A DNA stretch of 64,000 nucleotides, from assembly GCA_019689555.1 (NCBI GenBank), contig JADGHE010000006.1:20182-84181 (forward strand). The letters are read 5' to 3'. The notes beneath the pieces are model-generated. The model made no database searches and was not told the origin of the DNA. It was given only the letters and a program-made list of their open reading frames with translations. The first letter of the stretch is position 1, and every line of letters starts with the position of its first letter. The position numbers and the translations under genes are program-made. Positions 13,435 to 57,595 of this stretch are shown piece by piece. Origin of the DNA: Variibacter sp. Its GTDB lineage: Bacteria; Pseudomonadota; Alphaproteobacteria; Rhizobiales; Xanthobacteraceae.

Positions 13435-13511
13435 TGGTCGGGGCAGCAGGATTCGAACCTGCGACCTGGAGTACCCAAAACTCCCGCGCTACCAGACTGC
13501 GCTATGCCCCG
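13435..13511 (-). tRNA. tRNA-Pro (anticodon UGG)
   Basis: The reverse complement folds as a cloverleaf. Acceptor stem CGGGGCA/TGCCCCG, anticodon stem GGAGT/ACTCC with loop TTTGGGT, T-loop GGTTCGAATCC, encoded CCA. Confidence 0.95.
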
Positions 13512-16767: not shown

Positions 16768-16843
16768 GCGCCCTTCGTCTAGAGGCCCAGGACGCCGCCC
16801 TTTCACGGCGGAAACACGGGTTCGATTCCCGTAGGGCGCGCCA
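16768..16843 (+). tRNA. tRNA-Glu (anticodon UUC)
   Basis: Acceptor stem GCGCCCT/AGGGCGC, anticodon stem CCGCC/GGCGG with loop CTTTCAC, T-loop GGTTCGATTCC, encoded CCA. Confidence 0.95.
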
Positions 16844-28444: not shown

Positions 28445-28529
28445 GCGGCCGTGGCGGAATTGGTAGACGCGCTAGCTTGAGGTGCTAGTGGGTAACACCG
28501 TGGAGGTTCGAGTCCTCTCGGCCGCACCA
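28445..28529 (+). tRNA. tRNA-Leu (anticodon GAG)
   Basis: Acceptor stem GCGGCCG/CGGCCGC, anticodon loop TTGAGGT, long variable arm, T-loop GGTTCGAGTCC, encoded CCA. 85 nt. Confidence 0.95.
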
Positions 28530-42088: not shown

Positions 42089-43939
42089 TCAAGACGCCTC
42101 CGCCGCCTGCGGGGTCTCCTCCCCGCGCCGCGCGGCGGGCTCGAGGTGGAACTGGGCGGCCGCAAGCTCCGCGAAGCGGCCGCCGCGCCGCAGCAGCTCG
42201 TCGAAGGTGCCGCTCTCGACGATCCGCCCGTGGTCGAAGACCAGGATGCAATCCGCATTGCGGACAGTCGCGAGCCGGTGGGCAATGACGAAGGTCGTGC
42301 GGTTGCGCATGGCGGTGGCGATGGCGGCCTGGAACTTCGCCTCGGTCACGGCGTCCATGGCGCTCGTCGCTTCGTCGAGGATGAGGATCGGCGGGTCCTT
42401 GAGCAGCGCCCGCGCGATCGACAGACGCTGGCGCTCGCCGCCGGAGAGCGCCCGGCCGCGTTCGCCGACCGCGGCCGCCAGGCCGTTCTCGCGGTCGATG
42501 ATGTCGAGCGCCTGGGCCTGGCGCGCCGCCTCGCGCATCTCCTCCTCCGTCGCGTCGGGCTTTCCGACGCGCAGGTTCTCGGCGATCGAGCGGTTGAACA
42601 GCAGGGTCTCCTGAAAGACCACCCCGATGTTGCGGCGGAGCGCCGCGAGCTTGATGTCGCGGATGTCAATGCCGTCGATGCGAATGACGCCGGCCTGCGG
42701 ATCGAACGCCCGATGCAACAGCGCGAGCGCCGTCGACTTGCCGGCCCCGGTCGCCCCTACGAGCGCCACGCACTGGCCCGGCTCCGCCTTGAAGGTCAGG
42801 TCGCGCACGGCCGGCATGCGGCCGTCGTAGGAGAACGAAACGTTCTCGAATTCCACCCGTCCGCGCAGCCGGCCGGGGTCGATCGCATCGGGCCTGTCGC
42901 GCAGGGCCGGCGCGGTGTCGAGCACGTCGAAGAATTCGCGCAGCCGCGGCGCGTTCATGAACAGGCCGTTGACGAAGCCGACGGCCTGTTCGAGCCGGTG
43001 GATGATCATGGTGGCGAAATTCATGAACATCACCACCTCGCCGAGCGTGGCGAGCCCGCGCGCATGCAGAAAAGTGCCGACGATGATGATGACGAGGATC
43101 GTCAGCGTGGTCCCCGCCCGCGTCAGCACGGTCAGCACCGCCCACCACGACAGCACCGGAATCTGCGCGGCGAGCAGCAGATTGACCTGCTTTCTGAGCT
43201 CGGCCACCTCGGCCTCGACGCGGGTGAAGCTCTGCACCAGCGCGACATTGCCGAGTGCATCGGAGGCCCGCTCCGCCACGTCGGAATATTTGCGTTCGAC
43301 CGAGCTCTGCAACGACTCGGTCTTCTTGAGCATCCCCGCCGTGAGCGCCGCGAACACAACGCACAGCGCGATCAGCAGCAAGGCGAGCCGCCAGTTGAGA
43401 TAGATCGAAAGCGGCAGCAGCACGATCAGCGACACGAACGTCGCGAAGTGCTCGCGGAAGAAGCCGAGCCACAGCCACCACAAGGCGTCGGTGCCCTGCA
43501 GCATCACCTTCATCAGCCGGCCGGAATGGGTCGTCCCGTGAAAGGAGAGCGGAAGCTGCAGCACGTGCTCGAAATAGGTCGTCAGGACCGCCTGCCGGCG
43601 CCGGTGTGCCAAGCGGTCGGCGTGCAGCGCAACAAGCGTGCCGGAAACGATGGCGAAGATTCCGAACCCGACCCAGGCCGCGAGCAGCATCGACAGATGC
43701 GGCCAGTCGAGCGTCGCGCCCTTGGCCTGCGCGCCGGCGAGCACGTCGATGACCCGGCCGAACAGGATCGGCTCGGCGAACTGGGCGGCGACGAGCGCCA
43801 CATTGCCGATCGCGAGCATAAGCCCGAGGGAAGTTTCCGGGCCGAGCAGGTCGATCACGCGGCGGTAAAGCCGCAGCAGGCCGAGGGCGCCGCCGCTCTG
43901 GGCCTGCCGTTCTTCCAGGAGGGGTGCAGTCGCTGTCAT
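42089..43939 (-). CDS. Fused permease/ATPase ABC exporter, NdvA/ChvA (glucan exporter)-like
   Basis: ATG 43939, 616 aa. Walker [10 protein letters not shown], signature LSGGERQR, Walker [10 protein letters not shown]. The TM region shares blocks I recall from NdvA ([17 protein letters not shown]). The subfamily call is from memory, not a search. Confidence 0.85.
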
Positions 43940-43973
43940 GCCGTTCGGCGCTGGCCTCTCTGTCGATGGCTGC

Positions 43974-44531
43974 TCAACCGCGCAGCATGCGCATGAGAAC
44001 CGTATCGCGGCGCACGAAATGATGGAACAACGCGGCACCGATATGGCCGGCCAGCAGCAGCGCGAGGGCAATTCCCAGCCATCTGTGGCCCGTGAAGAGA
44101 ACGTCCGAGAGCGCGCGGTCCTCCGGCCAGATCGGCGGCAGTTCGAAAAGCCAGAAGAACAGGACCGGCGCCCGGTAGGCCGAGGTTGCGACCCATCCCA
44201 GGATCGGCTGCACCACCAACACGGCATAGAGCAGTCCGTGCGTCGTCCGCGCCGCCAGCCGCTGGAGGGGCGGGATGTCGTCCGGCAGAGGGGGCACCGT
44301 GTGCGTCAGGCGATAGGCAAGCCTCACCGCCATGATGGGAATGAGCAGCAGCCCGAACGACCGGTGCAGATGGAACAGCAGGTCCTGCGTCGGCCCTTCG
44401 GGCATATTCGCCATGAGGATTCCGGCTGGAATTTGAAACAGAACGATCGCCGCCGTCGTCCAGTGCAGGGTACGGGCGACGGCGGAGTAGCCCTGCACGT
44501 CTGTCGCCGGGAGAGCGTGCGCCTGGATCAT
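43974..44531 (-). CDS. Cytochrome b561 (CybB family)
   Basis: 185 aa. His-bearing helices ([41 protein letters not shown]) align by eye with E. coli CybB. Confidence 0.85.
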
Positions 44532-44564
44532 GGTGTGGCTCTCCTCGATCCCTCGCCTGCTGCG

Positions 44565-45725
44565 CTAAGGTTCGGAGGTCGGCTGCAGCGCGTCGGCCTC
44601 GTCCTCGGCCTCAACGAATGCCCCGTCCAGCCAATGCCCCGCCTTCGCCGCCTTGGCGGCGAGATAGCGGCGGTTGTCGGGATTGATCGGCGCCTGAAGC
44701 GGCATGCGGCCGACCACTTCCACCCCCGCCGCGTTCAGCGCCTCGAGCTTGCCCGGATTGTTGGTCATCAGCAACACGCGGTTGCACCCGATGATCCGCA
44801 GCATGCGCGCGGCAATGGCGTAGTCGCGCTCGTCGTCCTCGAAGCCGAGCGCGGTATTGGCGTCGACGGTGTCGAGGCCCGCGTCCTGCAGCGCGTAGGC
44901 GCGCATCTTGTTGGCGAGGCCGAGCCCGCGGCCCTCCTGCTCGAGATAGAGAATCACGCCGCCTCCCGACTCGGCGAGCCGCGTGATGGCGAGCTGAAGC
45001 TGCGCGCCGCAGTCGCAGCGGCGGGAGCCGAAGACGTCGCCGGTGAGGCACGCCGAGTGCAGTCGGACGGGGACGGGCTTCTGGAAGTCGGGCTCGCCGA
45101 TCACGACGGCGACGGGGCTTCCCCCGCCGGCATCGCGAAAGACGTGAAACCATGCCGCGACACCCTCGCGCAGCGGGACCTGGGCCTTGCTCGCGAGCGT
45201 CACGGAGTGGGCCAGTCGGCGGCGGAATTCCTGCACCGCGTCGGCGCGCACGGAGATCAGCCGCGGATCCCGGGCGATCGCGCGCGCGGCCGCGGAGTCG
45301 GCCACCAGCAGAGCCGGCAGCCGCGTGGCGAGCTTCGCCAGTTCGAGCGCCGCGACGGTGGCGGAACTCGCGGTCCGATAGTTCACGGGCGTCTTGCCGC
45401 CGATCTGTGTCGCAAGCGACCAGATCGACGCCAAGTCCGCCTGCCCGCTGAGTTCGATCAGAACCGGCGTCGTCACGTCGAGGCCGAGCCGGCGCGCGCG
45501 CCGGCTCGTGACCGCGAGCCGCAGCTCATCCCGACCACAGGAAGCCCGCAGGGCCGCGATGGTCGTCGCAGACGCGCCGTCGAGAGGCAGGGTCACCACG
45601 CGGTCGGCGCCCGCGGTCACCTCGACCGGCCGGCCGGCGCGGAATTCGGCAAGGCCGCGCTGAACCGCAATCTCGTCCGCCCCGCCGAACAGTTCCAAAT
45701 CGGCCCCTTGGATTTCGCTTGCCAT
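44565..45725 (-). CDS. GTP cyclohydrolase II with a degenerate RibB-like N-terminal domain
   Basis: The C-terminal half carries RLHSACLTGDVFGSRRCDCG (Zn Cys triad), EGRGLGLANKMRAYALQD and LLMTNNPGK. The N-terminal ~190 aa opens like DHBP synthase (AEFRAGRPVEV), but I see no DRENEGD or GHTE motifs. Confidence 0.9.
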   Translation of the reverse strand: MASEIQGADLELFGGADEIAVQRGLAEFRAGRPVEVTAGADRVVTLPLDGASATTIAALRASCGRDELRLAVTSRRARRLGLDVTTPVLIELSGQADLASIWSLATQIGGKTPVNYRTASSATVAALELAKLATRLPALLVADSAAARAIARDPRLISVRADAVQEFRRRLAHSVTLASKAQVPLREGVAAWFHVFRDAGGGSPVAVVIGEPDFQKPVPVRLHSACLTGDVFGSRRCDCGAQLQLAITRLAESGGGVILYLEQEGRGLGLANKMRAYALQDAGLDTVDANTALGFEDDERDYAIAARMLRIIGCNRVLLMTNNPGKLEALNAAGVEVVGRMPLQAPINPDNRRYLAAKAAKAGHWLDGAFVEAEDEADALQPTSEP

Positions 45726-45962
45726 TCCAGACGTGGTCCCAATTCGCAGATGCGAGAACCCCGGAAAAGGGCCGCTAGTCCTGTTCCTGGCGCCCTCAAT
45801 CTATGCCAACTTATGCCGCCACTTCAAAAAGTGCGCGGGACCAGCGTGACGAAAACAGGCCACGCCCCTCCGGGGGATCCGGGACGCGAGCGCCCTGCGG
45901 GAAGTGCTCCTCAACCGCTCGAACGCGCGGACGGGGCGTCCTGGGCCGCGACGCTTGCGGCG

Positions 45963-46703
45963 ATGCGCACGCCCGGAAGCCCGATCCCGCCGCCCTGGAC
46001 CGACCTTTTCGCCCCCCTCGTCGCGGGCGCCGTGGACGACCTGATGGTGATCGCCCAGATCGGCCAGTCGCTCGACGGACGGATCGCGACCCAAAGCGGC
46101 CACTCGCATTACATCAACGGCGACGAGGGTCTCGATCATCTGCATCGGCTGCGCGCCGTCGTCGACGCCGTCGTGATCGGCGTCGGCACGGTGCGCAGCG
46201 ACGATCCTCGCCTCACCGTGCGGCGCGTGCCGGGGCCGCAGCCTGCGCGGGTGATCATCGACCCGCAGGGGCGGCTGCCCCCGACCGCGCGCGTGCTCGC
46301 AGCCGACGGCGTGCGGCGGATCGTCGTGCGGGCCGCGGGCGTGCACACCCCGCTGCCCCCGGGGGTGGAAACGATCGAGCTGCGCCCGGCCGCGGGCTTG
46401 CTCGATCCTGCGGCCATCGTCGCGAGCCTCGCGGCGCGCGGCCTGCGGCGCATCCTCGTCGAGGGCGGCGCGAGCACCGTCTCGCGCTTCCTGGCGGCGC
46501 GATGCCTCGACCGCATGCACATCATCGTCGCGCCGATCATTCTCGGCTCGGGGGCGCAGAGCTTCGCCCTGCCCCCCGTCGACCGCGTGGAACAGGCCCT
46601 GCGGCCGCGCATGCGGGCGCATATCCTGCGCAACGACGTGCTGTTCGACTGCGATCTCTCGCATCAGAGGGTGGTCATCGGCCACGCGAAGAAATCCATG
46701 TGA
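45963..46703 (+). CDS. RibD C-terminal (pyrimidine reductase) domain protein, no deaminase domain
   Basis: IAQIGQSLDGRIATQSGHSHYINGDEGLDHLHRLRAVVDAVVIGVGTVRSDDPRLTVR is the RibD_C pattern. Start ATG 45963 is chosen; alternative ATG 45813. The N-terminal 670 aa of ORF 43938..46703 are antisense shadow. Confidence 0.8.
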   Translation: MRTPGSPIPPPWTDLFAPLVAGAVDDLMVIAQIGQSLDGRIATQSGHSHYINGDEGLDHLHRLRAVVDAVVIGVGTVRSDDPRLTVRRVPGPQPARVIIDPQGRLPPTARVLAADGVRRIVVRAAGVHTPLPPGVETIELRPAAGLLDPAAIVASLAARGLRRILVEGGASTVSRFLAARCLDRMHIIVAPIILGSGAQSFALPPVDRVEQALRPRMRAHILRNDVLFDCDLSHQRVVIGHAKKSM

Positions 46704-47467
46704 CCGACGCGCAGCGTCGAGCGGCCGGCGCCGACGAGGTCGCGGCGGCGGGCAAGCCAGTCCTGCACTCGCGAAAGCGGCACGACGCCGACCGCCTGCG
46801 CGGCCTGCGCCCAGCCGGCGAGGAGCTGCATCTGTATCTCGCGATCGGTCGGCGCGAATTCCCAATCGGAACGTCCCGCGCTGACGGTGTAGCCGACCCG
46901 CTGGAACCGCTTCATCGCAAACGGGGCGGCGCTGGGGCCGAGCGCCGGGCCGAAGCCCTTGTCGGTGAGCTGATGGCGGTTCACGGCGGCGATCACGCGC
47001 GCATCGAGCGGGTCCGGCGGGGAGAAGGTGACGCGTCCGTCGTAGATCAAGGCCGCATAGACCGGGAGGCGGCGCGTCGCCGCTTCGACCGCGAGGCGGT
47101 CGACCCAGACATCCGAGACCAGATCCAGCAGGGCCGAAGCGGTGACAAGGTCCACGGGACCATCGAGCGCCAATTCGAGGTCGCGCGCGAGATCGAGCGC
47201 GATCCGATGCACATGGGCGCCGGGCGGCTGTTCGGTCGGCCGCGTGAGCAGCCCGAGATTGTTGTCGTAGAGGCGCCACGTCTGCCGCCCGGGCAGGTGC
47301 GACGCAATCGCCCGGAGGGTGGAGCCCGTGCCGCAGCCGAGATCGGCGACCGTGATCGCGAAGCGATCCTTGAAGGCGGCCGCCACGGCCTCGAGCACGG
47401 TGCGGTTGCGCGCGGCGGCGTCGTAAGGTTCGCGCAGATCCAGCCATTCGGCGGAAAAGACGCTCAT
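46664..47467 (-). CDS. Class I SAM-dependent methyltransferase
   Basis: ATG 47467 gives MSVFSAEWLDLREPYD. Motif I VADLGCGTGS. The ATG overlaps the GT4 stop as ATGA. Confidence 0.8.
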   Translation of the reverse strand: MSVFSAEWLDLREPYDAAARNRTVLEAVAAAFKDRFAITVADLGCGTGSTLRAIASHLPGRQTWRLYDNNLGLLTRPTEQPPGAHVHRIALDLARDLELALDGPVDLVTASALLDLVSDVWVDRLAVEAATRRLPVYAALIYDGRVTFSPPDPLDARVIAAVNRHQLTDKGFGPALGPSAAPFAMKRFQRVGYTVSAGRSDWEFAPTDREIQMQLLAGWAQAAQAVGVVPLSRVQDWLARRRDLVGAGRSTLRVGHMDFFAWPMTTL

Positions 47468-48516
47468 GCGGCCGCCTCCAGCACGCCGGCGAAGATCGTC
47501 GCGGTGTCCTGCCAGGTCGGAAGCCGCTGCGCCGCCGCCCACGCGACTTCTCCCCAGCGCCGGCGCGCCTTCCGGTCGGTGACGGCAAGGCGCAGGGCGG
47601 CCGCCAGGGCCGCGACGTCGTCCGGGGGGACCAGCAGGCCAGCGCCGGGCGGCACCGTGGTGGGAATTGCGCCCGCCGTGGTTCCGATCACCGGCAGGCC
47701 GTGGGCAATCGCTTCCGAGAAGGCCATTCCGTATCCTTCGAAGCGGGAGGCTAACACGAAAAGATCCGCGGCCTCGTATCGTTCCGCGAGATCGGCCGCA
47801 CTGACCGCCCCGGCGAGCACAACCCTTTCCCCCAGCCCGAGACGGCGGACCTCGCGGGCGATCGCCTCGGCCGTCGGGGGGCTGCGGTCGCGATCGCCGA
47901 CGATCACCAGACGCCAGTCGAGATCGCGGAGACGGGCCAGCGCGGCCAGCAGCACGTCGTAACCCTTCCGCGGCACCAGCGCGCCGACCGCCAGCAAGCC
48001 GACGCAAGCCCCTCCTCCGCCGCTTGCGCGCCGCACCCGATCGGCGCCCGGCGGCGCAACGGTGATGCGCTCGCGCGGGACGTTATAGCCGGCCGCCAAC
48101 AGCTCCGCGGTGGCGGCGCTGGTGACGACCACATGGCGCACGGCGGCGAGCGCCGCGCGCTCGCTTGCCCGCAGGGCCTCGGCCCGCGCGGGGGCCAGGC
48201 CGGTTTCCAGAGCGAGCGGATGGTGCACGAGCGCGATCACCGGCCTTCGCCCGCGCAAGGCCGCGGCGGCCTCGGGGAGCACGCCGAGCGCCAGCCCGTC
48301 CACGACGAGGGGCTCCCGGCCGGCATGGCCGAGCAGCGCCGCGAGCGCGCGGGCGCGAACTCCATCGCCGGCTTCGGGAAATCCTTCGCCGAGATCGAGC
48401 ACCTCGACGCGCCAGCCCAGGCTTCTCAGCTCGGCGATGACGCGACGATCGTAGGCGTATCCGCCGGTCGGCGTATCCAGGCTGCCGGGAACCGCGAAGA
48501 CCGCCGCCGGCTTCAC
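47464..48516 (-). CDS. GT4-family glycosyltransferase
   Basis: GTG at 48516 (or 48519) gives KPAAVFAVPGSLDTPTGGYAYDRR. C-terminal GT-B block FVLASRFEGYGMAFSEAIAHGLPVIGT (E-x7-E type). GTGA overlap with the upstream stop. Confidence 0.85.
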   Translation of the reverse strand: MKPAAVFAVPGSLDTPTGGYAYDRRVIAELRSLGWRVEVLDLGEGFPEAGDGVRARALAALLGHAGREPLVVDGLALGVLPEAAAALRGRRPVIALVHHPLALETGLAPARAEALRASERAALAAVRHVVVTSAATAELLAAGYNVPRERITVAPPGADRVRRASGGGGACVGLLAVGALVPRKGYDVLLAALARLRDLDWRLVIVGDRDRSPPTAEAIAREVRRLGLGERVVLAGAVSAADLAERYEAADLFVLASRFEGYGMAFSEAIAHGLPVIGTTAGAIPTTVPPGAGLLVPPDDVAALAAALRLAVTDRKARRRWGEVAWAAAQRLPTWQDTATIFAGVLEAAA

Positions 48517-48914
48517 CACACCGGCGCCTCGTAGAAGGCGCGCGCCAGCGGCGATTCCGCGATCGTGACGCGGATCGCCGCGATCTCGCGCCCGTCGCGG
48601 CCGAGTTTGCCTGCGCGCACCGCATCCGCCAGGCGATCGAAGACATAGCGCGTCAAAAATTCGGTCGTCGTGTTGACGCCGGCGAACTGCGGCAGCTCGT
48701 CGAGATTGCGGTAGTTGATCGGCGCGAGCGCCGCCTTGAGGACCTCGAAGGCGCGGCCGATGTCGACGACGATGCCGTTGGCGTCGAGCCGCTCGGCCAG
48801 AAAAGCCGCCGAGACCGTGAAGGTCGCGCCATGCAGCGCCTGCGCGGGGCCGAAGATCTCGCCGCGAAACGAATGGGCGATCATGACGTGATCGGACACC
48901 TCTACGGCGAACAC
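48513..48914 (-). CDS. 6-pyruvoyl-tetrahydropterin synthase / QueD (COG0720) fold protein, divergent active site
   Basis: GTG start with GGAGGA upstream. The 133-aa product aligns by eye with E. coli QueD (IAHSF, LHGATF, VDIGRAFEVLK, NTTTEFL), but several catalytic positions differ. See findings. Confidence 0.8.
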   Translation of the reverse strand: MFAVEVSDHVMIAHSFRGEIFGPAQALHGATFTVSAAFLAERLDANGIVVDIGRAFEVLKAALAPINYRNLDELPQFAGVNTTTEFLTRYVFDRLADAVRAGKLGRDGREIAAIRVTIAESPLARAFYEAPVW

Positions 48915-48935
48915 GGGGTTCTCGTCCTCCGTGGA

Positions 48936-49940
48936 TCAGCCGGCGTCGGCCGCCGGGTAGCGGATGACCTGGCATAGCACACCGCCGCCCGGCTTAAGGA
49001 TGGCCGGCAGGGCCGCGGGCAGCGCGCGGAAGTCAATCGGCGGGGCGAGCAGCCCGTCGAGGGCCGGATCGGCGAGAAGGGCGAGCGCCGCCACGAGCCT
49101 GCGCGCGGGGGTCCAGCGGGCCCGGTGCGAGGGGGCGATGCGGCCGACCTGACTCGAAACGATCCGCAGCCGACGACTGTGGAATGCCTCGCCCAGCGGG
49201 ACCGGGACCTCGCCCGTCCCGTACCAGCTCAGTTCCAGCACGGTCGCCTCTTCGCCGGCGAGGCGCAGGGCGGTCGCAAGGCCGGCGGCGGTCCCGCTCG
49301 CATGGATGACGAGGTCGCAGTCCTGCGGCGCCTCGCCCGGGGAGGCGAAGGCCACCCCGAGCGTCCGCGCGACCGTGGCGCGGCCGGGATCGACATCCAC
49401 GAGGGTCGTCTGTGCACCCGGCAGGCGGCCGCACAACCAGGCGCACAGGCATCCGACCGTGCCGCCCCCGACCACCGCGATGCGGTCCGCCGGGGCGGGC
49501 GCCGCATCCCACACGGCGTTGAGCGCCGTCTCCATGTTCGCCGCCAGCACCGCCCGCGCGGCGGGCACGCCGTCGGGCACAGGCACGACCGACTCCGCCG
49601 GCAGGGTGAAGACGCTCTGATGCGGATGGAGCGCGAAAACCATGCGGCCTTCAAGGGCTTCCGGCCCCTGCTCGACCCGGCCGACGGTCGCGTAACCGTA
49701 TTTCACCGGGAAGGGAAAGGTCCCGGCCATGGCGGGACCGCGCATGCGCTCGTATTCGCTCGGCGGCACCCGCCCGGCAAACACCAGCCGCTCGGTCCCG
49801 CGGCTCAAGGCACCAAAATGGGCGCGCACGCGCACCTCGCCGTGCAGCGGGGCGGGCGCCCGCTCCGACCGGATTTCGGCGCGCCCCGCAGCGACGTACC
49901 AGAGCGCCTCGGCTGGTTCCCCCCTGTCGTCTGCCCGCAC
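48936..49940 (-). CDS. MDR-superfamily dehydrogenase, BchC-like (annotated type: zinc-binding alcohol dehydrogenase)
   Basis: GTG 49940 is preceded by GGAG. GALSRGTERLVFAGRVP and VKYGYATVGRV resemble BchC-type MDRs. Rossmann motif VVGGGTVG. No Cys/His catalytic-Zn ligands are evident. The upstream 630 aa of ORF 48936..51836 are antisense shadow of opgH. Confidence 0.75.
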   Translation of the reverse strand: MRADDRGEPAEALWYVAAGRAEIRSERAPAPLHGEVRVRAHFGALSRGTERLVFAGRVPPSEYERMRGPAMAGTFPFPVKYGYATVGRVEQGPEALEGRMVFALHPHQSVFTLPAESVVPVPDGVPAARAVLAANMETALNAVWDAAPAPADRIAVVGGGTVGCLCAWLCGRLPGAQTTLVDVDPGRATVARTLGVAFASPGEAPQDCDLVIHASGTAAGLATALRLAGEEATVLELSWYGTGEVPVPLGEAFHSRRLRIVSSQVGRIAPSHRARWTPARRLVAALALLADPALDGLLAPPIDFRALPAALPAILKPGGGVLCQVIRYPAADAG

Positions 49941-50018
49941 AAAGGCTCCGTGTGGTTGGACTTTCTGGCCCCCGGATCGGTATATCTTATATCGGCACAG
50001 GGGTTTCACGTTTTTTTC
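49941..50018. promoter_or_regulatory. AT-rich divergent promoter region between the dehydrogenase operon and opgH
   Basis: 78-nt spacer containing GGTATATCTTATATCGG (TATATC repeated twice) and a T7 run directly before the opgH ATG. It stands out against the GC-rich surroundings. Confidence 0.4.
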
Positions 50019-51851: not shown

Positions 51852-52582
51852 GGAGCGCGCGCGGCGTCGCCCGTTCGCTGCGCCTCTACTACGGCGATCG
51901 GGCGCGGCGCGCCGCCATGGAGCGGCTCTATTCCCGCTTCGTCGCGGCGGGCGACCTCGTCTTCGACATCGGCGCTCATGTCGGCGACCGCGTCGCCGCG
52001 TTCCGCCGGCTCGGCGCGCGGGTCGTCGCCGTCGAGCCGCAGCCGGCGCTCGCGTGGACGCTGCGGCTCATCTACGCGCGCGACCGCGCCGTTACGGTCG
52101 AGCGGTGCGCGGTCGGCCGCGCGGTGGGACGGGTGACGCTGCGGCTCAATCTCGCCAATCCCACCGTCTCGACCGCCTCGAGCGCGTTCGTCGAAGCCGC
52201 GCATAATGCTCCCGGCTGGGAAGGACAGAGGTGGAGCGCGAGCGTCGACGTGCCGATGCTGACGCTCGACGCCCTGATCGCCCGCCACGGAGCGCCGCGC
52301 TTCATCAAGATCGACGTCGAAGGCTTCGAGGCGGAGGCTTTGGCCGGCCTGACGCGACCGGCGCCCGCGCTCTCCTTCGAGTTCACCACGATCCAGCGCG
52401 CCGTCGCCCTCGCCTGCCTCGAACGGTGCGCGGCGCTCGGCTATCGCGCCTTCGATGCGGCGCTCGGGGAAAATCAGAGGCTCGAACACGGCCGCTGGAT
52501 CACGGCGGAGGAGATGGCGCGCTGGCTCGAAGCGCTGCCCCACGCCGCCAATTCGGGAGACATCTATGCAATGCTCGGCTAG
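51836..52582 (+). CDS. FkbM-family methyltransferase
   Basis: ATG 51836 (GAGGCG upstream), 248 aa. VFDIGAHVGD and FIKIDVEGFEAEAL are FkbM hallmarks. It overlaps the opgH end by 16 nt. Confidence 0.85.
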   Translation: MLTILRSARGVARSLRLYYGDRARRAAMERLYSRFVAAGDLVFDIGAHVGDRVAAFRRLGARVVAVEPQPALAWTLRLIYARDRAVTVERCAVGRAVGRVTLRLNLANPTVSTASSAFVEAAHNAPGWEGQRWSASVDVPMLTLDALIARHGAPRFIKIDVEGFEAEALAGLTRPAPALSFEFTTIQRAVALACLERCAALGYRAFDAALGENQRLEHGRWITAEEMARWLEALPHAANSGDIYAMLG

Positions 52583-53522
52583 GAGGCGCGCGCTGCGCGG
52601 GCTTGCGCTCGCGACGGGGCTCGTTGCGAGCCTCGCCGCCGCCCGCGCGGAAGAACTCGCGGTCGAGGTCGTCAACGCCAGCGAGCCGACGCTCTGCGCC
52701 GAGACGGACAACGTCTATCTCAAGTTCGTGTCCGCCGCGGCGCGGCGCTTCCGCATCGAGGCCGTGCACCCCGCCTATATCGGCACCGTCGTCGCCGACC
52801 GCGCCGCACCCGATCTTCGCCATTGCGACATGTCGGCCGACCCCGCCTATCCGGCGAAGCCGCGGCGCGTCACGCTTTTCGAGTCCGAGGAGTGGCAGCT
52901 CGTCGGCCACGTCTTTCCGAGCTTCTGGCGGCCGAACGCGGTGCCGGTGCGCATTGGCGAGCGCACGGAGAGCGGTTTGCACCTCCTGCAGCTCTGGACG
53001 CGTTTCCAGGAGCGGGCGGAGGAAGTGCTGGCGTTCTACCCGGCCGACGGATACTGGCGCGCACGGCCGCTGCCGCCCGCGCACCTGCGCTGGACCGCCT
53101 ACGGCTCGTCCTTCCTCGTCGGACCGGTGGAGATGAGCGGCCGCCCGCTGGTCGACATCCGCGCCATCGCCTTCGATCCGGCAAGCCGCAGCTTCCATCT
53201 CGCCTTCGCGCGCGGCGGCGGCGCGACGCTGCGGCTCGAATCCCTCGATCAGGAGCGGATCGTTCTCGACGTGAGCCTGGACGCGCCGATTGCCGCCGAA
53301 CGGCCGTTCGCGGCGCTGCGCTCGATGTATGTGACGGACGTCAATGCCGACGTGGCGCAGCTCGCCTGGCGCCCGAAGGAGGGCAAGGGCTGGCGGCAGG
53401 CGCCGGTGATGACCTTCGACCGCGCGTCGGCGGTCGAAGTGTGGGCGGGCCGCTCACTCCCCTCCCGGCACAATCTGAGCGCGCCCGACATGGTGTTCGG
53501 ACCGTTTCGCGCGGGCCCCTGA
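52566..53522 (+). CDS. Secreted hypothetical protein (318 aa), no family recognised
   Basis: ATG 52566 (GGGAGA upstream) gives MQCSARRRALRGLALATGLVASLAAARA-EE, a signal peptide. It overlaps the FkbM end by 17 nt. Coding-like composition. Confidence 0.7.
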   Translation: MQCSARRRALRGLALATGLVASLAAARAEELAVEVVNASEPTLCAETDNVYLKFVSAAARRFRIEAVHPAYIGTVVADRAAPDLRHCDMSADPAYPAKPRRVTLFESEEWQLVGHVFPSFWRPNAVPVRIGERTESGLHLLQLWTRFQERAEEVLAFYPADGYWRARPLPPAHLRWTAYGSSFLVGPVEMSGRPLVDIRAIAFDPASRSFHLAFARGGGATLRLESLDQERIVLDVSLDAPIAAERPFAALRSMYVTDVNADVAQLAWRPKEGKGWRQAPVMTFDRASAVEVWAGRSLPSRHNLSAPDMVFGPFRAGP

Positions 53523-53563: not shown

Positions 53564-55894
53564 TCACCGGCCGGCGAGCCGGCGCCGAAGCTCGTCCCAC
53601 GCGCCGCGGAACGGCCGAAACGCGAAGCGCACGCTGTGGCGCCCGGGACCGACCAAAACCGCGCGGAAGAGCCCATTGGCTTTGAGGATTTCCGCCGGCG
53701 CCCCGTCGATGTCCGCGTACCACCACGGGTGCCAGACGTCGTTGAGCAGCAGGAACCCGGCCCCCCGGCTGTCGACCTCGACGACCACGTCGGTGTTGGC
53801 GTAGCTGACGATGCGCGCCGTCCCCTCTCCTTCCCCTCCGGGGGCCGGCGCGCCCGCGGGCGCATGGTCGAGCAGCACCGTCTTGCGCGGATCGGCGTCG
53901 GGCCATCCCGCGCGCCGCAGTTCGTCGAAGTCGACCACGCGGAAACCCGGAACGAACATCACGCGCGGCAGCGCGTGCGGGTTTTCGTACACATAGGCGT
54001 CGGCCGTGCGCGCGAGCAGCGTCAGGTCGCCGGGCTTCAGCGCCGAGTCGATGCGCTCGACCGGAACGCCGGTCGCGATCAGCCGTAGGCCGAAGAGATC
54101 GGCCAGGGTGGAGCGATAAGAGGGAAACAGAAGGGCGAAGGTGCGCTGATCCGGTCCCGCCACCGTGTCGCCGACGCCGGTCGCTTGGGCGAAGTCGCGC
54201 AGCCGCAGCGGGTTGTGTCCGAGCACATGGTCGAAGCCGTGGGACAGGCTGAGGTTCGGCCAGTGGTAGCCGATGCCGACGAGCTCCACGCGGTCGCGCC
54301 GGTCCGGCGCGGCATGCTTGGCGAGTTTTTCCTTGAGCAAGGCGACCGTCGGATTCGCGGTCCCAGGGCGCAGCGCGTCGTACAGGGAGGGCGGCAGGCC
54401 CGTGGATTCGTTCGGCGCGTGGTTCCAGCCGAGATCGGCGGCGACCACGAGGCCGAGCAGCGCCGTCGCTGCGAGCGCGCTGCGCAGGGCGAGGCGCCGC
54501 GCGGCGGCGAGCGCCGCGACGGTGATCGCCGCAAGAACGAATCCGCTCACGATCGGCGCGACGGCGGCGCGCACCATGCCGACGGCAAACGCGACCGCGA
54601 GCGCCGCGATGGCGAGCGCAAGCGCCAAGGCGGCTTCCGCTGCGCGCTGGCGCGGCGTCGCGGCGGCCACCGTGCCGGTGAGCCAGCGGTGAACCATGTA
54701 GCCGGTGATGACCGCGAGCAGCAGTCCGAAAATGAAGGTCGCATCGGCCGGACGGCGAAACAGATCCACCCCCGGCATCACCGCATACATCGCGCGAAAG
54801 GCCGGCGTGTACCAGCCGAGCGCGTAGAGCAGCACAAAAACGAGAGCGATCGTGAAGAAGCGAATTTCGCGCGACCACATGAGGCCGCGCACGAAGCCGA
54901 AGCCGAGCACCGCAATCGGCGCGATCATGCCGGCGTAGATCTGCCCGACATTCTGCGCGATGAACAGATCGGTCTCGCCGATCGCCTGATCCCAGGCCGG
55001 GCTCGGCGGTCCCCAGAAATCCATGCCGAACATCGAGGCGCCGTAGAGATTGGCGAACACCAGCATCAGCAGATGCGCGGGATGCAGGGAGCCGCGCCCG
55101 GCCATGGCGTAGGCGATGGCGGGCCGGTTCGAGTCGGCGGCGAGCAGCGCCGTCAGCACGAGCGGCACCGCGGCGATCACGGCAGCCGCACAGGCGGCGG
55201 CGACGAGCGGCGGCAGCGTCTGCTTGACGCGCCGGAGCGGCCGCGGCGACTGCATCCAGTGCGCGAGCACGAAGCCGGCGAGAACATAAAGGCTCAGCAC
55301 GGCGACCTGATCGCGCTCGATCGCCAACAACCCCGCGACCACGCCCGCCGCGAGACCGGCGCGCCACGAGGCGCGTTCCAAGGTCCGCGCCACGAGCCAC
55401 AGCGCGAGCGCCAGATAAGCGAGGCTCATGAGCTGGCCCGTGTGCTGGAGCCGGGAGGCCGCGGAGCCGCCGCACGCGAACATCAGCGCCGCGACGAGCG
55501 CGCCGCCCATGTGCCAATCGCGGTCGCGGAAAAAGAGGATCACGCCGAGCCCGCCGAGAAAAAGATAGGCGAAGGTGACCGCGTCGACGGCGCGAAAGCC
55601 GGGGTCGGCGGTAAAGGCGGCCAGCAGGAAATGCAGCGGCGAGAAGATCAGCGCCTGCGGATCGGCGATCTGCGGCCAGCCGGCGAAGACGTAAGGAGCC
55701 CAGAACGGCGACTGGCCCTCGGCCAGGGACGCAGCCAGAAACTGCACCTGCGGCAGGAACTGAGCCTTCGCGTCCCAGGGTATCGTGACGCGGCCGGACA
55801 GCCAGGGCGAGGCCAGCGCGAGGAAGGCCGCTGCGAACAACACGGCGGCCGGCACCCAGCGGGAACAACTTTTCTGGCCGACTTCGCGATCCAT
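53564..55894 (-). CDS. Large polytopic membrane protein with C-terminal extracytoplasmic domain (GT-C/YfhO-like architecture; function unknown)
   Basis: The ~480-aa N-terminal part has many hydrophobic helices; the ~300-aa C-terminal part is soluble. ATG 55894 is chosen (GTG 55933 alternative). The family call is from architecture only. Confidence 0.75.
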   Translation of the reverse strand: MDREVGQKSCSRWVPAAVLFAAAFLALASPWLSGRVTIPWDAKAQFLPQVQFLAASLAEGQSPFWAPYVFAGWPQIADPQALIFSPLHFLLAAFTADPGFRAVDAVTFAYLFLGGLGVILFFRDRDWHMGGALVAALMFACGGSAASRLQHTGQLMSLAYLALALWLVARTLERASWRAGLAAGVVAGLLAIERDQVAVLSLYVLAGFVLAHWMQSPRPLRRVKQTLPPLVAAACAAAVIAAVPLVLTALLAADSNRPAIAYAMAGRGSLHPAHLLMLVFANLYGASMFGMDFWGPPSPAWDQAIGETDLFIAQNVGQIYAGMIAPIAVLGFGFVRGLMWSREIRFFTIALVFVLLYALGWYTPAFRAMYAVMPGVDLFRRPADATFIFGLLLAVITGYMVHRWLTGTVAAATPRQRAAEAALALALAIAALAVAFAVGMVRAAVAPIVSGFVLAAITVAALAAARRLALRSALAATALLGLVVAADLGWNHAPNESTGLPPSLYDALRPGTANPTVALLKEKLAKHAAPDRRDRVELVGIGYHWPNLSLSHGFDHVLGHNPLRLRDFAQATGVGDTVAGPDQRTFALLFPSYRSTLADLFGLRLIATGVPVERIDSALKPGDLTLLARTADAYVYENPHALPRVMFVPGFRVVDFDELRRAGWPDADPRKTVLLDHAPAGAPAPGGEGEGTARIVSYANTDVVVEVDSRGAGFLLLNDVWHPWWYADIDGAPAEILKANGLFRAVLVGPGRHSVRFAFRPFRGAWDELRRRLAGR

Positions 55895-57519: not shown

Positions 57520-57595
57520 GAGCCCGTAGCTCAGCTGGTAGAGCACTTGACTTTTAATCAAGTGGTCCTGGGTTCGAGTCCCAGCGGGCTCACCA
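57520..57595 (+). tRNA. tRNA-Lys (anticodon UUU)
   Basis: Acceptor stem GAGCCCG/CGGGCTC, anticodon stem CTTGA/TCAAG with loop CTTTTAA, T-loop GGTTCGAGTCC, encoded CCA. Confidence 0.95.

Follow-up and report, generated by a model that had tools for sequence, protein, structure and literature searches.

The locus described here lies in a 64,000-nucleotide stretch of DNA from Variibacter sp. (Xanthobacteraceae; assembly GCA_019689555.1, contig JADGHE010000006.1, positions 20,182 to 84,181 of the forward strand), which is called the window below and to which all the positions refer. In an earlier note, made from the sequence alone, eight genes were described as a candidate undescribed small-molecule pathway: those of GTP cyclohydrolase II (GCH II), cytochrome b561, a fused ABC exporter, a reductase-only RibD_C protein, a dehydrogenase of the MDR fold, a COG0720 protein of the PTPS fold, a GT4 glycosyltransferase and a methyltransferase. 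The composition of the window is about 69% G+C and long spurious open reading frames (ORFs) are frequent there; the coding frames were judged by a frame-specific third-position GC plot and the translations, and the protein domains were determined by Pfam and NCBIfam profile searches. The plot and the translations agreed with the coordinates and strands of all eight genes. The gaps of 34, 33 and 21 nucleotides were reproduced from the gene coordinates, and the ATGA (methyltransferase/GT4) and GTGA (GT4/COG0720 protein) overlaps were seen in the sequence. The described unit proved to be too small, however: a divergent gene of an MdoH-type GT2 glucan synthase and the gene of an FkbM-family methyltransferase belong to it too, and two further genes may encode accessory parts (Table 1).

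Table 1. Features of the locus, positions in the window, supporting evidence, and number of loci with the gene among the best-scoring 80 of at least 596 confirmed loci (frequencies are indicative)
Feature	Position	Strand	Evidence	Loci (of 80)
Fused ABC exporter, 616 residues, NdvA/ChvA-type by profile	42089..43939	-	PF00664 + PF00005; NF010178	14
Prokaryotic cytochrome b561, 185 residues	43974..44531	-	PF01292, 103.6 bits	20
GTP cyclohydrolase II, 386 residues, degenerate DHBP-synthase-like N-terminal domain	44565..45725	-	PF00925	30
GCH II/RibD_C divergent intergenic region, 237 bp	45726..45962	.	coordinates	
Stand-alone RibD_C pyrimidine reductase, 246 residues	45963..46703	+	PF01872, 143 bits	55
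Class I SAM-dependent methyltransferase, 267 residues	46664..47467	-	weak PF13649 (Methyltransf_25)	71
GT4 glycosyltransferase, 350 residues	47464..48516	-	PF13692/PF00534	76
PTPS-IV, COG0720 T-fold protein, 133 residues	48513..48914	-	PF01242, 72.6 bits	
MDR-fold NAD-dependent oxidoreductase, 334 residues	48936..49940	-	weak PF00107 (ADH_zinc_N)/BchC	73, directly upstream of PTPS-IV
MDR/mdoH divergent intergenic region, 78 bp	49941..50018	.	sequence	
MdoH/OpgH-type membrane GT2 glucan synthase, 610 residues	50019..51851	+	NF003958, NF003962, PF13632	47, divergent from the MDR gene
FkbM-family methyltransferase, 248 residues	51836..52582	+	PF05050 + TIGR01444; downstream of mdoH	
Secreted 318-residue protein, possible accessory part	52566..53522	+	signal-peptide-like N-terminus by eye	
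776-residue polytopic membrane protein, faintly YfhO-like, possible accessory part	53564..55894	-	Rhodoplanes orthologue	

By its sequence motifs, the COG0720 protein is a member of the PTPS-IV subfamily. The motif FGPAQxLHGAT was common to diverse homologues, and its F, G, P, A and H were invariant in a 26-sequence alignment. F20, G21, P22 and A23 did not vary, and Q24 was predominant, 2 of the 26 sequences differing (window protein, EIFGPAQALHGAT). FGPAQ was published as the subfamily signature, and PF00925 and PF01872 were reported in the PTPS-IV gene neighbourhood (AGeNNT paper 2017, PMC5445326); both domains are present in the window. The family profile including the window protein matched PDB entry 3d7j, titled 'uncharacterized protein SCO6650' (Streptomyces coelicolor), over residues 1-131 with an E-value of 1.5e-59. 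Aligned with canonical PTPS, the protein has other residues in place of the catalytic Cys, of the Asp-His pair and of the third Zn-binding His; against PTPS 2g64, Cys is changed to Ala and DH to NY, and the HGH of the motif reads HGA. The TTTE and ES motifs were kept, aligned with the pterin-anchoring residues of PTPS and QueD which hold the 2-amino-4-oxo-pyrimidine ring. PTPS-IV thereby shares the T-fold and the anchoring Glu and Thr motifs with PTPS-II and QueD, whereas its loci have no GCH I, QueC or QueE neighbours. The homologue search matched at least 8000 soil and freshwater protein clusters, and 75 clusters of the representative library were matched at E <= 1e-30. A PTPS protein identical to that of the window was matched in a Variibacter sp. 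(Xanthobacteraceae) metagenome-assembled genome.

Three other assignments of the protein were rejected. QueD/PTPS-I was discarded on the basis of PAQALHGA in place of CxxxHGH, with no Cys and the third His changed to Ala, of the TIGR03367 score of 30.7 bits compared with the cut-off of 89, and of the lack of QueC and QueE among the conserved neighbour families. In the case of PTPS-II, the CxxxxxHGH motif and the Cys-Asp-His catalytic triad were missing. PTPS-III, the folate type, requires ExxHGH, and the corresponding QALHGA has neither the Glu at -3 nor the third His. The genome annotation, in which the protein is called '6-carboxytetrahydropterin synthase' with a queuosine GO term, is contradicted by these motif tests. 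Outside the window, tandem PTPS-IV-like proteins of two to three domains and 373-855 residues were observed (P0133, P0134, P0148, P0155 and P0159). The P0134 cluster includes Emiliania huxleyi and Gephyrocapsa oceanica, and haptophyte algae thus seem to encode a concatenated T-fold version. The domain-fusion survey yielded just triple-tandem PTPS-IV proteins and one MDR-PTPS read-through, nothing informative.

The conservation of the cluster was determined in one genome per species, using a 9-sequence PTPS alignment for the genome scan and tblastn with the window proteins for the gene presence per locus. The cluster is common: at least 596 loci were confirmed, and those studied span Alpha-, Beta- and Gammaproteobacteria, Actinobacteria, Acidobacteriota and Gemmatimonadota. 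The MDR, GT4 and methyltransferase genes were each found in 71-76 of the best-scoring 80 loci across phyla, and a chance juxtaposition, which the earlier note had allowed for, is not what was found. In nearly all loci, the PTPS-IV gene was flanked by those of the MDR enzyme and the GT4. In Polynucleobacter, which has a small, low-GC genome, the eight genes and mdoH form a compact nine-gene block in a different order: the methyltransferase, ABC and MdoH genes lie on one strand, the MDR, PTPS and GT4 genes are divergent from them, and the RibD_C, GCH II and b561 genes follow. This block is flanked by unrelated genes (a CNNM transporter and YcaO). Being reordered and still intact, it is strong evidence that all nine genes, including those of the exporter and the cytochrome, work together.

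In Thiodictyon, seven genes are arranged on one strand in the order MDR, PTPS, GT4, methyltransferase, cytochrome b, RibD and CDP-alcohol transferase, and the last two overlap. The Agrobacterium plasmid pAt (L088) carries sulfatase, flippase-like, phosphatidyltransferase, ribA, MDR, PTPS, GT4, methyltransferase, RibD and cytochrome b genes. On plasmid pOB3b1 of Methylosinus trichosporium OB3b (L085), mdoH was found with the core and RibD, and without GCH II. Several cultured strains have the cluster on plasmids, and among them the model methanotroph OB3b and Agrobacterium would be convenient experimental systems.

The MdoH-type GT2 passed the cut-offs of two equivalog profiles, with 513 bits compared with 419 (NF003958) and 450 compared with 328 (NF003962). 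The divergent MDR/mdoH arrangement was kept in 44 loci, and in 19-20 alphaproteobacterial loci the FkbM methyltransferase gene was at the same position downstream of mdoH. When the neighbour ORFs of the loci were grouped by de novo clustering, the loci without mdoH were found to carry a CDP-alcohol phosphatidyltransferase in its place, in most cases with a 'flippase-like' protein of the LPG-synthase-TM type, and often a sulfatase-family membrane transferase. Among the loci with enough upstream sequence, 44 had mdoH only, 13 the CDP-alcohol phosphatidyltransferase only, none both, and 4 neither. Both variants occur within Alphaproteobacteria. From this pairing with either MdoH or the phosphatidyltransferase it follows that there are two alternative membrane modules, to one or the other of which the core is coupled. 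Cytochrome b561 was detected with both of them, in Polynucleobacter, on the Agrobacterium pAt plasmid and on the Thiodictyon plasmid pTs417.

The ABC protein scored 875 bits with NF010178, 'glucan ABC transporter' (cut-off 733), and 577 bits with TIGR01192, chvA, which is just under the cut-off of 585. By the former profile, the protein may be classed as a glucan exporter of the NdvA/ChvA type. The 'dedicated exporter' of the earlier note is thus probably a glucan exporter; its gene adjoins the core in few loci (Table 1), although in Betaproteobacteria, Polynucleobacter among them, it shares one operon with mdoH. No ORF of a very large cyclic glucan synthase (Cgs/NdvB) was found in the window or in the conserved neighbourhood. 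The locus resembles the periplasmic- and cyclic-glucan systems (OpgH/MdoH; NdvA/ChvA) in the GT2 and ABC proteins, which pass the NCBIfam equivalog cut-offs of MdoH and of the glucan ABC transporter, respectively. It differs from them in the divergent pairing of mdoH with the PTPS-IV operon and in having neither OpgG/OpgD nor a large synthase nearby.

Downstream of mdoH, the 318-residue secreted protein had homologues in the same place in 6 loci and no Pfam or NCBIfam match. Homologues of the 776-residue membrane protein were found in loci L012, L052 and L074; no Pfam or NCBIfam match was obtained with the protein of the window, and the Rhodoplanes orthologue at the same position gave a faint PF09586 YfhO match. 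A 451-residue multi-pass membrane protein replaces the 318-residue protein downstream of mdoH-FkbM in L016 (2059-3414) and in 8 other alphaproteobacterial loci. Its single match, a very weak one, was to the LA_3751/LA_3752 putative glycosyltransferase family.

The GCH II part of the 386-residue protein spans the C-terminal residues from about 176 to 386, of which residues 180-342 matched PF00925 with 182 bits; the NF006456 score, 346 bits, was under the cut-off of 464. The match to PDB 2bz0 had an E-value of 1e-53, and the equivalents of the Zn cysteines C54, C65 and C67 and of Y105 and R128 were all present. Tyr105 is said, in work of Spoonamore et al. 2006, to direct the formation of the deformylated product. 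A degenerate DHBP-synthase domain, from which the acidic catalytic loop is missing, makes up the first 175 residues; the top seven PDB matches of the N-terminal profile were all RibB, the best of them weak (E = 6e-4). A bifunctional RibBA was rejected, as the DDExRENEGD-type loop falls in an alignment gap and NF006803 gave 232 bits compared with the cut-off of 569. The missing loop, with no separate DHBP synthase among the window ORFs scanned, agrees with the absence of an active ribB claimed in the earlier note.

The GCH II proteins of Actinobacteria were of two kinds. Short forms in which Met or His takes the place of the E. coli Tyr105 co-occurred with a creatininase-family gene (L072, L077, L081), and Tyr-type genes were found without it (L073, L078, L082). 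Sm-BrbF, a bacterial member of the creatininase family, has been proven to act as a formamidase on FAPy, the formylated GCH II intermediate. The combination of a Met/His-type GCH II with the creatininase gene fits a two-enzyme route of the GCH III-like plus formamidase type. Since either this pair or a Tyr-type GCH II would suffice, both are expected to deliver 2,5-diamino-6-ribosylamino-pyrimidinone 5'-phosphate. In several alphaproteobacterial loci, a creatininase gene stands beside a Tyr-type GCH II, and these loci are not explained by the formamidase route. SCO6655, the neighbour of SCO6650, is reportedly a GCH II homologue which stops at the formylated intermediate and in which Tyr is replaced by Met.

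The RibD_C protein matched PF01872 only, with no deaminase domain. Its best PDB relatives were the archaeal DARoPP reductases 6p8c and 2azn, and its Gln32 aligned with an Asn in both of them. Gln was invariant at this position in all 34 cluster-linked homologues, the window protein included. The corresponding specificity position (K152 of EcRibD, K151 of BsRibG) is occupied by Lys in eubacteria, Asn in archaea and Thr in fungi, and the eubacterial Lys selects the deaminated substrate (PMC3631187). The window enzyme is therefore predicted to accept the undeaminated substrate. The prediction of a stop at an undeaminated diamino-ribitylamino-pyrimidinone phosphate, made in the earlier note, is strengthened by the archaeal relatives and by the Gln in the Lys position. 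The same Gln and the 2-amino-4-oxo-pyrimidine anchors of PTPS-IV speak for retention of the C2 amino group, in line with that prediction.

The locus has in common with the early riboflavin pathway (RibA; archaeal ArfC and fungal Rib7) the canonical GCH II domain and the diamino-substrate-type RibD_C. It differs in the lack of a deaminase, RibH, RibE, an active RibB and a riboswitch, and in a specificity position occupied by Gln, not by Lys, Asn or Thr. Deaminase, RibH and RibE domains were absent from every cluster gene in the Pfam/NCBIfam scan, and no CMP-deaminase, lumazine synthase, riboflavin synthase or separate DHBP synthase domain was detected in about 30 additional ORFs of the window. 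At the gathering threshold, the Rfam search gave no FMN or other riboswitch, and at E < 1 it gave nothing but noise. The locus is not a riboflavin operon, in accordance with the earlier note.

The MDR protein had a generic MDR or polyol-dehydrogenase fold (AF2 model, pLDDT 81), and its fold neighbours in the PDB include polyol and polyol-phosphate dehydrogenases, e.g., TarJ and idonate 5-dehydrogenase. By eye, the catalytic Zn ligands seem to be lost (SRGTE, GYA) and an NAD-type motif, GGGTVG...VDVD, is present. The name 'BchC-like' used in the earlier note was too specific, the score being 39 bits compared with the cut-off of 291. The best PDB matches of the GT4 were MshA (7qsg), the sucrose-phosphate synthase-like 6kih, PimB' and BshA, and the enzyme appears closest to those glycosylating small or polyol-phosphate acceptors. 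The methyltransferase model (pLDDT 92) had a fold like that of small-molecule class I methyltransferases. The sequence searches of the MDR protein and the methyltransferase against the PDB were uninformative.

In the ENA assembly of what is apparently the same contig (L001 10399-11451), the GT4 was called as two ORFs of 229 and 87 residues; it is intact (350 residues) in the window and in Logan assemblies, and the split version is probably an assembly or indel difference. The RibD_C and methyltransferase genes are convergent and their 3' ends share 40 nucleotides (46664-46703). The same 40-nucleotide overlap was found in the locus of Rhodoplanes sp. Z2-YC6860 (L087, 10765-10804).

Taken together, we regard the locus, at about even confidence, as a copy of a widespread cluster of the PTPS-IV or SCO6650-SCO6655 type, which leaves the riboflavin pathway at the first intermediate of the latter and leads to an envelope glycoconjugate. 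All the chemical steps are inferred from protein families and gene context. GCH II would convert GTP to 2,5-diamino-6-ribosylamino-4(3H)-pyrimidinone 5'-phosphate, and RibD_C would reduce the ribosyl to the ribityl group without prior deamination, keeping the 2-amino-4-oxo-pyrimidine face. The ribityl-diaminopyrimidinone phosphate may then be transformed by the MDR oxidoreductase, apparently Zn-less, and by PTPS-IV, which is both Zn-less and Cys-less. In the preferred chemistry, the MDR enzyme would oxidise the ribityl 2'-OH, which with the RibD_C step amounts to a net Amadori rearrangement, and PTPS-IV, with the pyrimidine bound to it, could help the ring to close onto the 5-amino group, giving a dihydroneopterin-phosphate-like pterin. 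A side-chain hydroxyl would be glycosylated by the MshA-like GT4, and the molecule would then be methylated by the class I methyltransferase.

The putative product would be handed over at the membrane in one of two ways. Here and in most Proteobacteria, the candidate partner is the MdoH-type glucan synthase, with or without the NdvA-type ABC exporter and the FkbM methyltransferase. In other lineages, the CDP-alcohol phosphatidyltransferase, the flippase-like protein and the LtaS/OpgB-like transferase may serve, so that a head group would be flipped and transferred. A glycoconjugate that is located outside the cytoplasm or associated with the membrane, and that bears a heterocycle made from GTP, is the most likely end product. 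The presence of cytochrome b561 with both membrane variants suggests that the product is redox-active. A more specific version is that of a glycosylated and methylated redox-active heterocycle, a pterin or aminopyrimidine formed from GTP via GCH II, which is displayed outside the membrane, on or priming the MdoH glucan exported with the NdvA-type transporter or as a phospholipid head group, and to which cytochrome b561 is the electron partner; it is speculative and less likely than not, with a real chance of being correct. If true, it would mean a new class of envelope-bound cofactor, and it might show what primes or substitutes periplasmic glucans in nature.

Several points weigh against the envelope glycoconjugate. 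No OpgG/OpgD (MdoG-type) partner was found among the scanned window ORFs or the conserved neighbour families, and the adjacency of mdoH could in part be inherited synteny within Alphaproteobacteria. GT4 enzymes are retaining, and the OpgH of E. coli has reportedly been shown to extend beta-glucoside primers. The structure paper of 2008 is said to have found no Zn or other metal, no PTPS activity and no known substrate for SCO6650. GCH II stood beside the core in 30 and RibD_C in 55 of the 80 loci, and the link to GTP is thus often PTPS-IV alone. The fold searches of the MDR protein and the methyltransferase in the PDB returned generic neighbours alone, from which no substrate could be assigned. 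In addition, a different role of PTPS-IV, in archaeal F420 synthesis, was mentioned in a remark citing unpublished data (PMC5041015).

The alternative that survives best, which we still consider unlikely, is a soluble pterin glycoside of, for instance, the neopterin or biopterin type, similar to cyanopterin, tepidopterin or solfapterin, acting in the cytoplasm or after secretion as a cofactor or photoprotectant, with the membrane genes as mere regulatory or historical neighbours. Pterin glycosides formed via group-1 glycosyltransferases occur in cyanobacteria, Chlorobium and Sulfolobus, and the PTPS fold with its pterin-binding motifs, the GT4 and methyltransferase tailoring genes and the 4 loci with neither membrane module are consistent with such a product. 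However, the strict either-or of MdoH and phosphatidyltransferase (44, 13 and no locus with both) would be left unexplained, as would the operon-level joining with membrane genes in Polynucleobacter and Thiodictyon. The known routes to pterin glycosides also have GCH I and canonical PTPS at their start instead of GCH II and RibD_C, and PTPS-IV is without the catalytic triad.

An archaeal-style early riboflavin or 5-amino-6-ribitylaminouracil (F420-type) route, in which reduction would come before deamination, PTPS-IV would perform a post-reductase step such as that deamination and the other genes would use the uracil derivative, is improbable. The archaeal-like RibD_C, the remark on PTPS-IV in F420 synthesis (PMC5041015), the PF00925 and PF01872 neighbourhood (PMC5445326) and the action of creatininase-type formamidases in bacterial riboflavin synthesis speak for it. 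Against these stand the absence of ribH, ribE, an active ribB and an FO-synthase gene from the window and the conserved neighbourhood, the absence of an FMN riboswitch at the locus, the core partners themselves (GT4, methyltransferase, MDR and membrane enzymes) and the occurrence of the cluster on accessory plasmids. PTPS-IV is, moreover, without one of the three Zn-binding histidines of PTPS. SCO6650 was reportedly crystallised without metal, which would make a hydrolytic deamination unlikely.

A slightly poorer prospect still is a periplasmic-glucan locus in which the GT4, the methyltransferases and the MDR enzyme act on the glucan, with GCH II, RibD_C and PTPS-IV as an unrelated module. The equivalog matches of MdoH and of the NdvA/ChvA-type protein would agree with it, as would the FkbM methyltransferase, the faintly YfhO-like membrane protein and the secreted protein downstream. 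It is difficult to reconcile with the single translationally coupled operon of MDR, PTPS, GT4 and methyltransferase genes, with the place of PTPS-IV between MDR and GT4 in nearly all loci, and with the retention of the core operon in Actinobacteria and other lineages without mdoH at the locus. That the eight genes are together by chance with no common function, to which the lack of GCH II, b561 and ABC genes in many loci might point, is made negligibly probable by the cross-phylum conservation, the rearranged intact nine-gene sets, the plasmid copies and the start/stop overlaps.

In comparison with published systems, the closest is the SCO6650-SCO6655 region of S. coelicolor, which contains the same PTPS family; Streptomyces plasmid copies also have MDR, PTPS, GT4, methyltransferase and ribA genes. 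The actinobacterial version differs in having the CDP-alcohol phosphatidyltransferase and the flippase-like protein in place of mdoH, ABC and b561, and often in a short GCH II, whose Tyr105 position is taken by Met or His, and a creatininase-family gene. The published PTPS-IV subfamily (Phillips et al. 2012; Zallot et al. 2016; AGeNNT 2017) is alike in FGPAQ and in the PF00925/PF01872 neighbourhood, whereas MDR, GT4, methyltransferase, mdoH, phosphatidyltransferase and b561 partners were not mentioned in the PTPS-IV literature searched. Literature searches for a link of PTPS to OpgH/MdoH or to rhizobial phenotypes returned nothing relevant.

Modified pyrimidines and fused heterocycles are made from the GCH II product in other organisms, namely toxoflavin (ToxABCDE) with a methyltransferase, and faba bean vicine and convicine with a glycosyltransferase. 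The toxoflavin set consists of the methyltransferase ToxA, the GCH II ToxB, ToxC, ToxD and the full-length RibD ToxE. A toxoflavin cluster was rejected, as neither ToxC/ToxD homologues nor a full-length RibD were found and the methyltransferase is an unrelated class I enzyme; the partners of GCH II at this locus are PTPS-IV, an MDR enzyme and membrane modules. No characterised cluster holding the gene set was found in the libraries, annotation and literature searched, in agreement with the earlier note, and the PGAP names are generic.

The cluster family was noticed before in pieces, and no product assigned to it was found in the literature searched. The word 'undescribed' in the earlier note is hence not wholly correct, as the PTPS-IV subfamily is published and SCO6650 was crystallised. 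New relative to the literature searched are the nine-to-twelve-gene composition, the two mutually exclusive membrane modules and the recurrent cytochrome b561. No product was found in that literature although the crystal structure of SCO6650 dates from about 2008 and one homologous GCH II has reportedly been characterised biochemically. The cluster extends over Proteobacteria, Actinobacteria, Acidobacteriota and Gemmatimonadota. The either-or membrane link and cytochrome b561 point to the periplasmic-glucan and phospholipid fractions as places to look for it, and the proposed chemistry, which starts at the first intermediate of riboflavin synthesis, can be tested. Its confirmation would add a new GTP-derived cofactor or envelope decoration and give a function to an orphan branch of the T-fold PTPS family.

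Regarding the surroundings, the GCH II/RibD_C intergenic region had no Rfam family and no sigma-70 consensus match, and the searches for sigma-70 promoters and terminators gave no signal beyond shuffled controls. The approximately 30 window ORFs scanned outside the cluster were ordinary housekeeping genes, among them those of MoeA, LexA, tRNA synthetases, citrate synthase, RecJ, PhaC, MgtE and fatty-acid oxidation. Four tRNA genes, none of which adjoins the cluster, were located at 13438-13511 (-), 16768-16840 (+), 28445-28526 (+) and 57520-57592 (+). The base composition of the cluster was the same as that of its surroundings.

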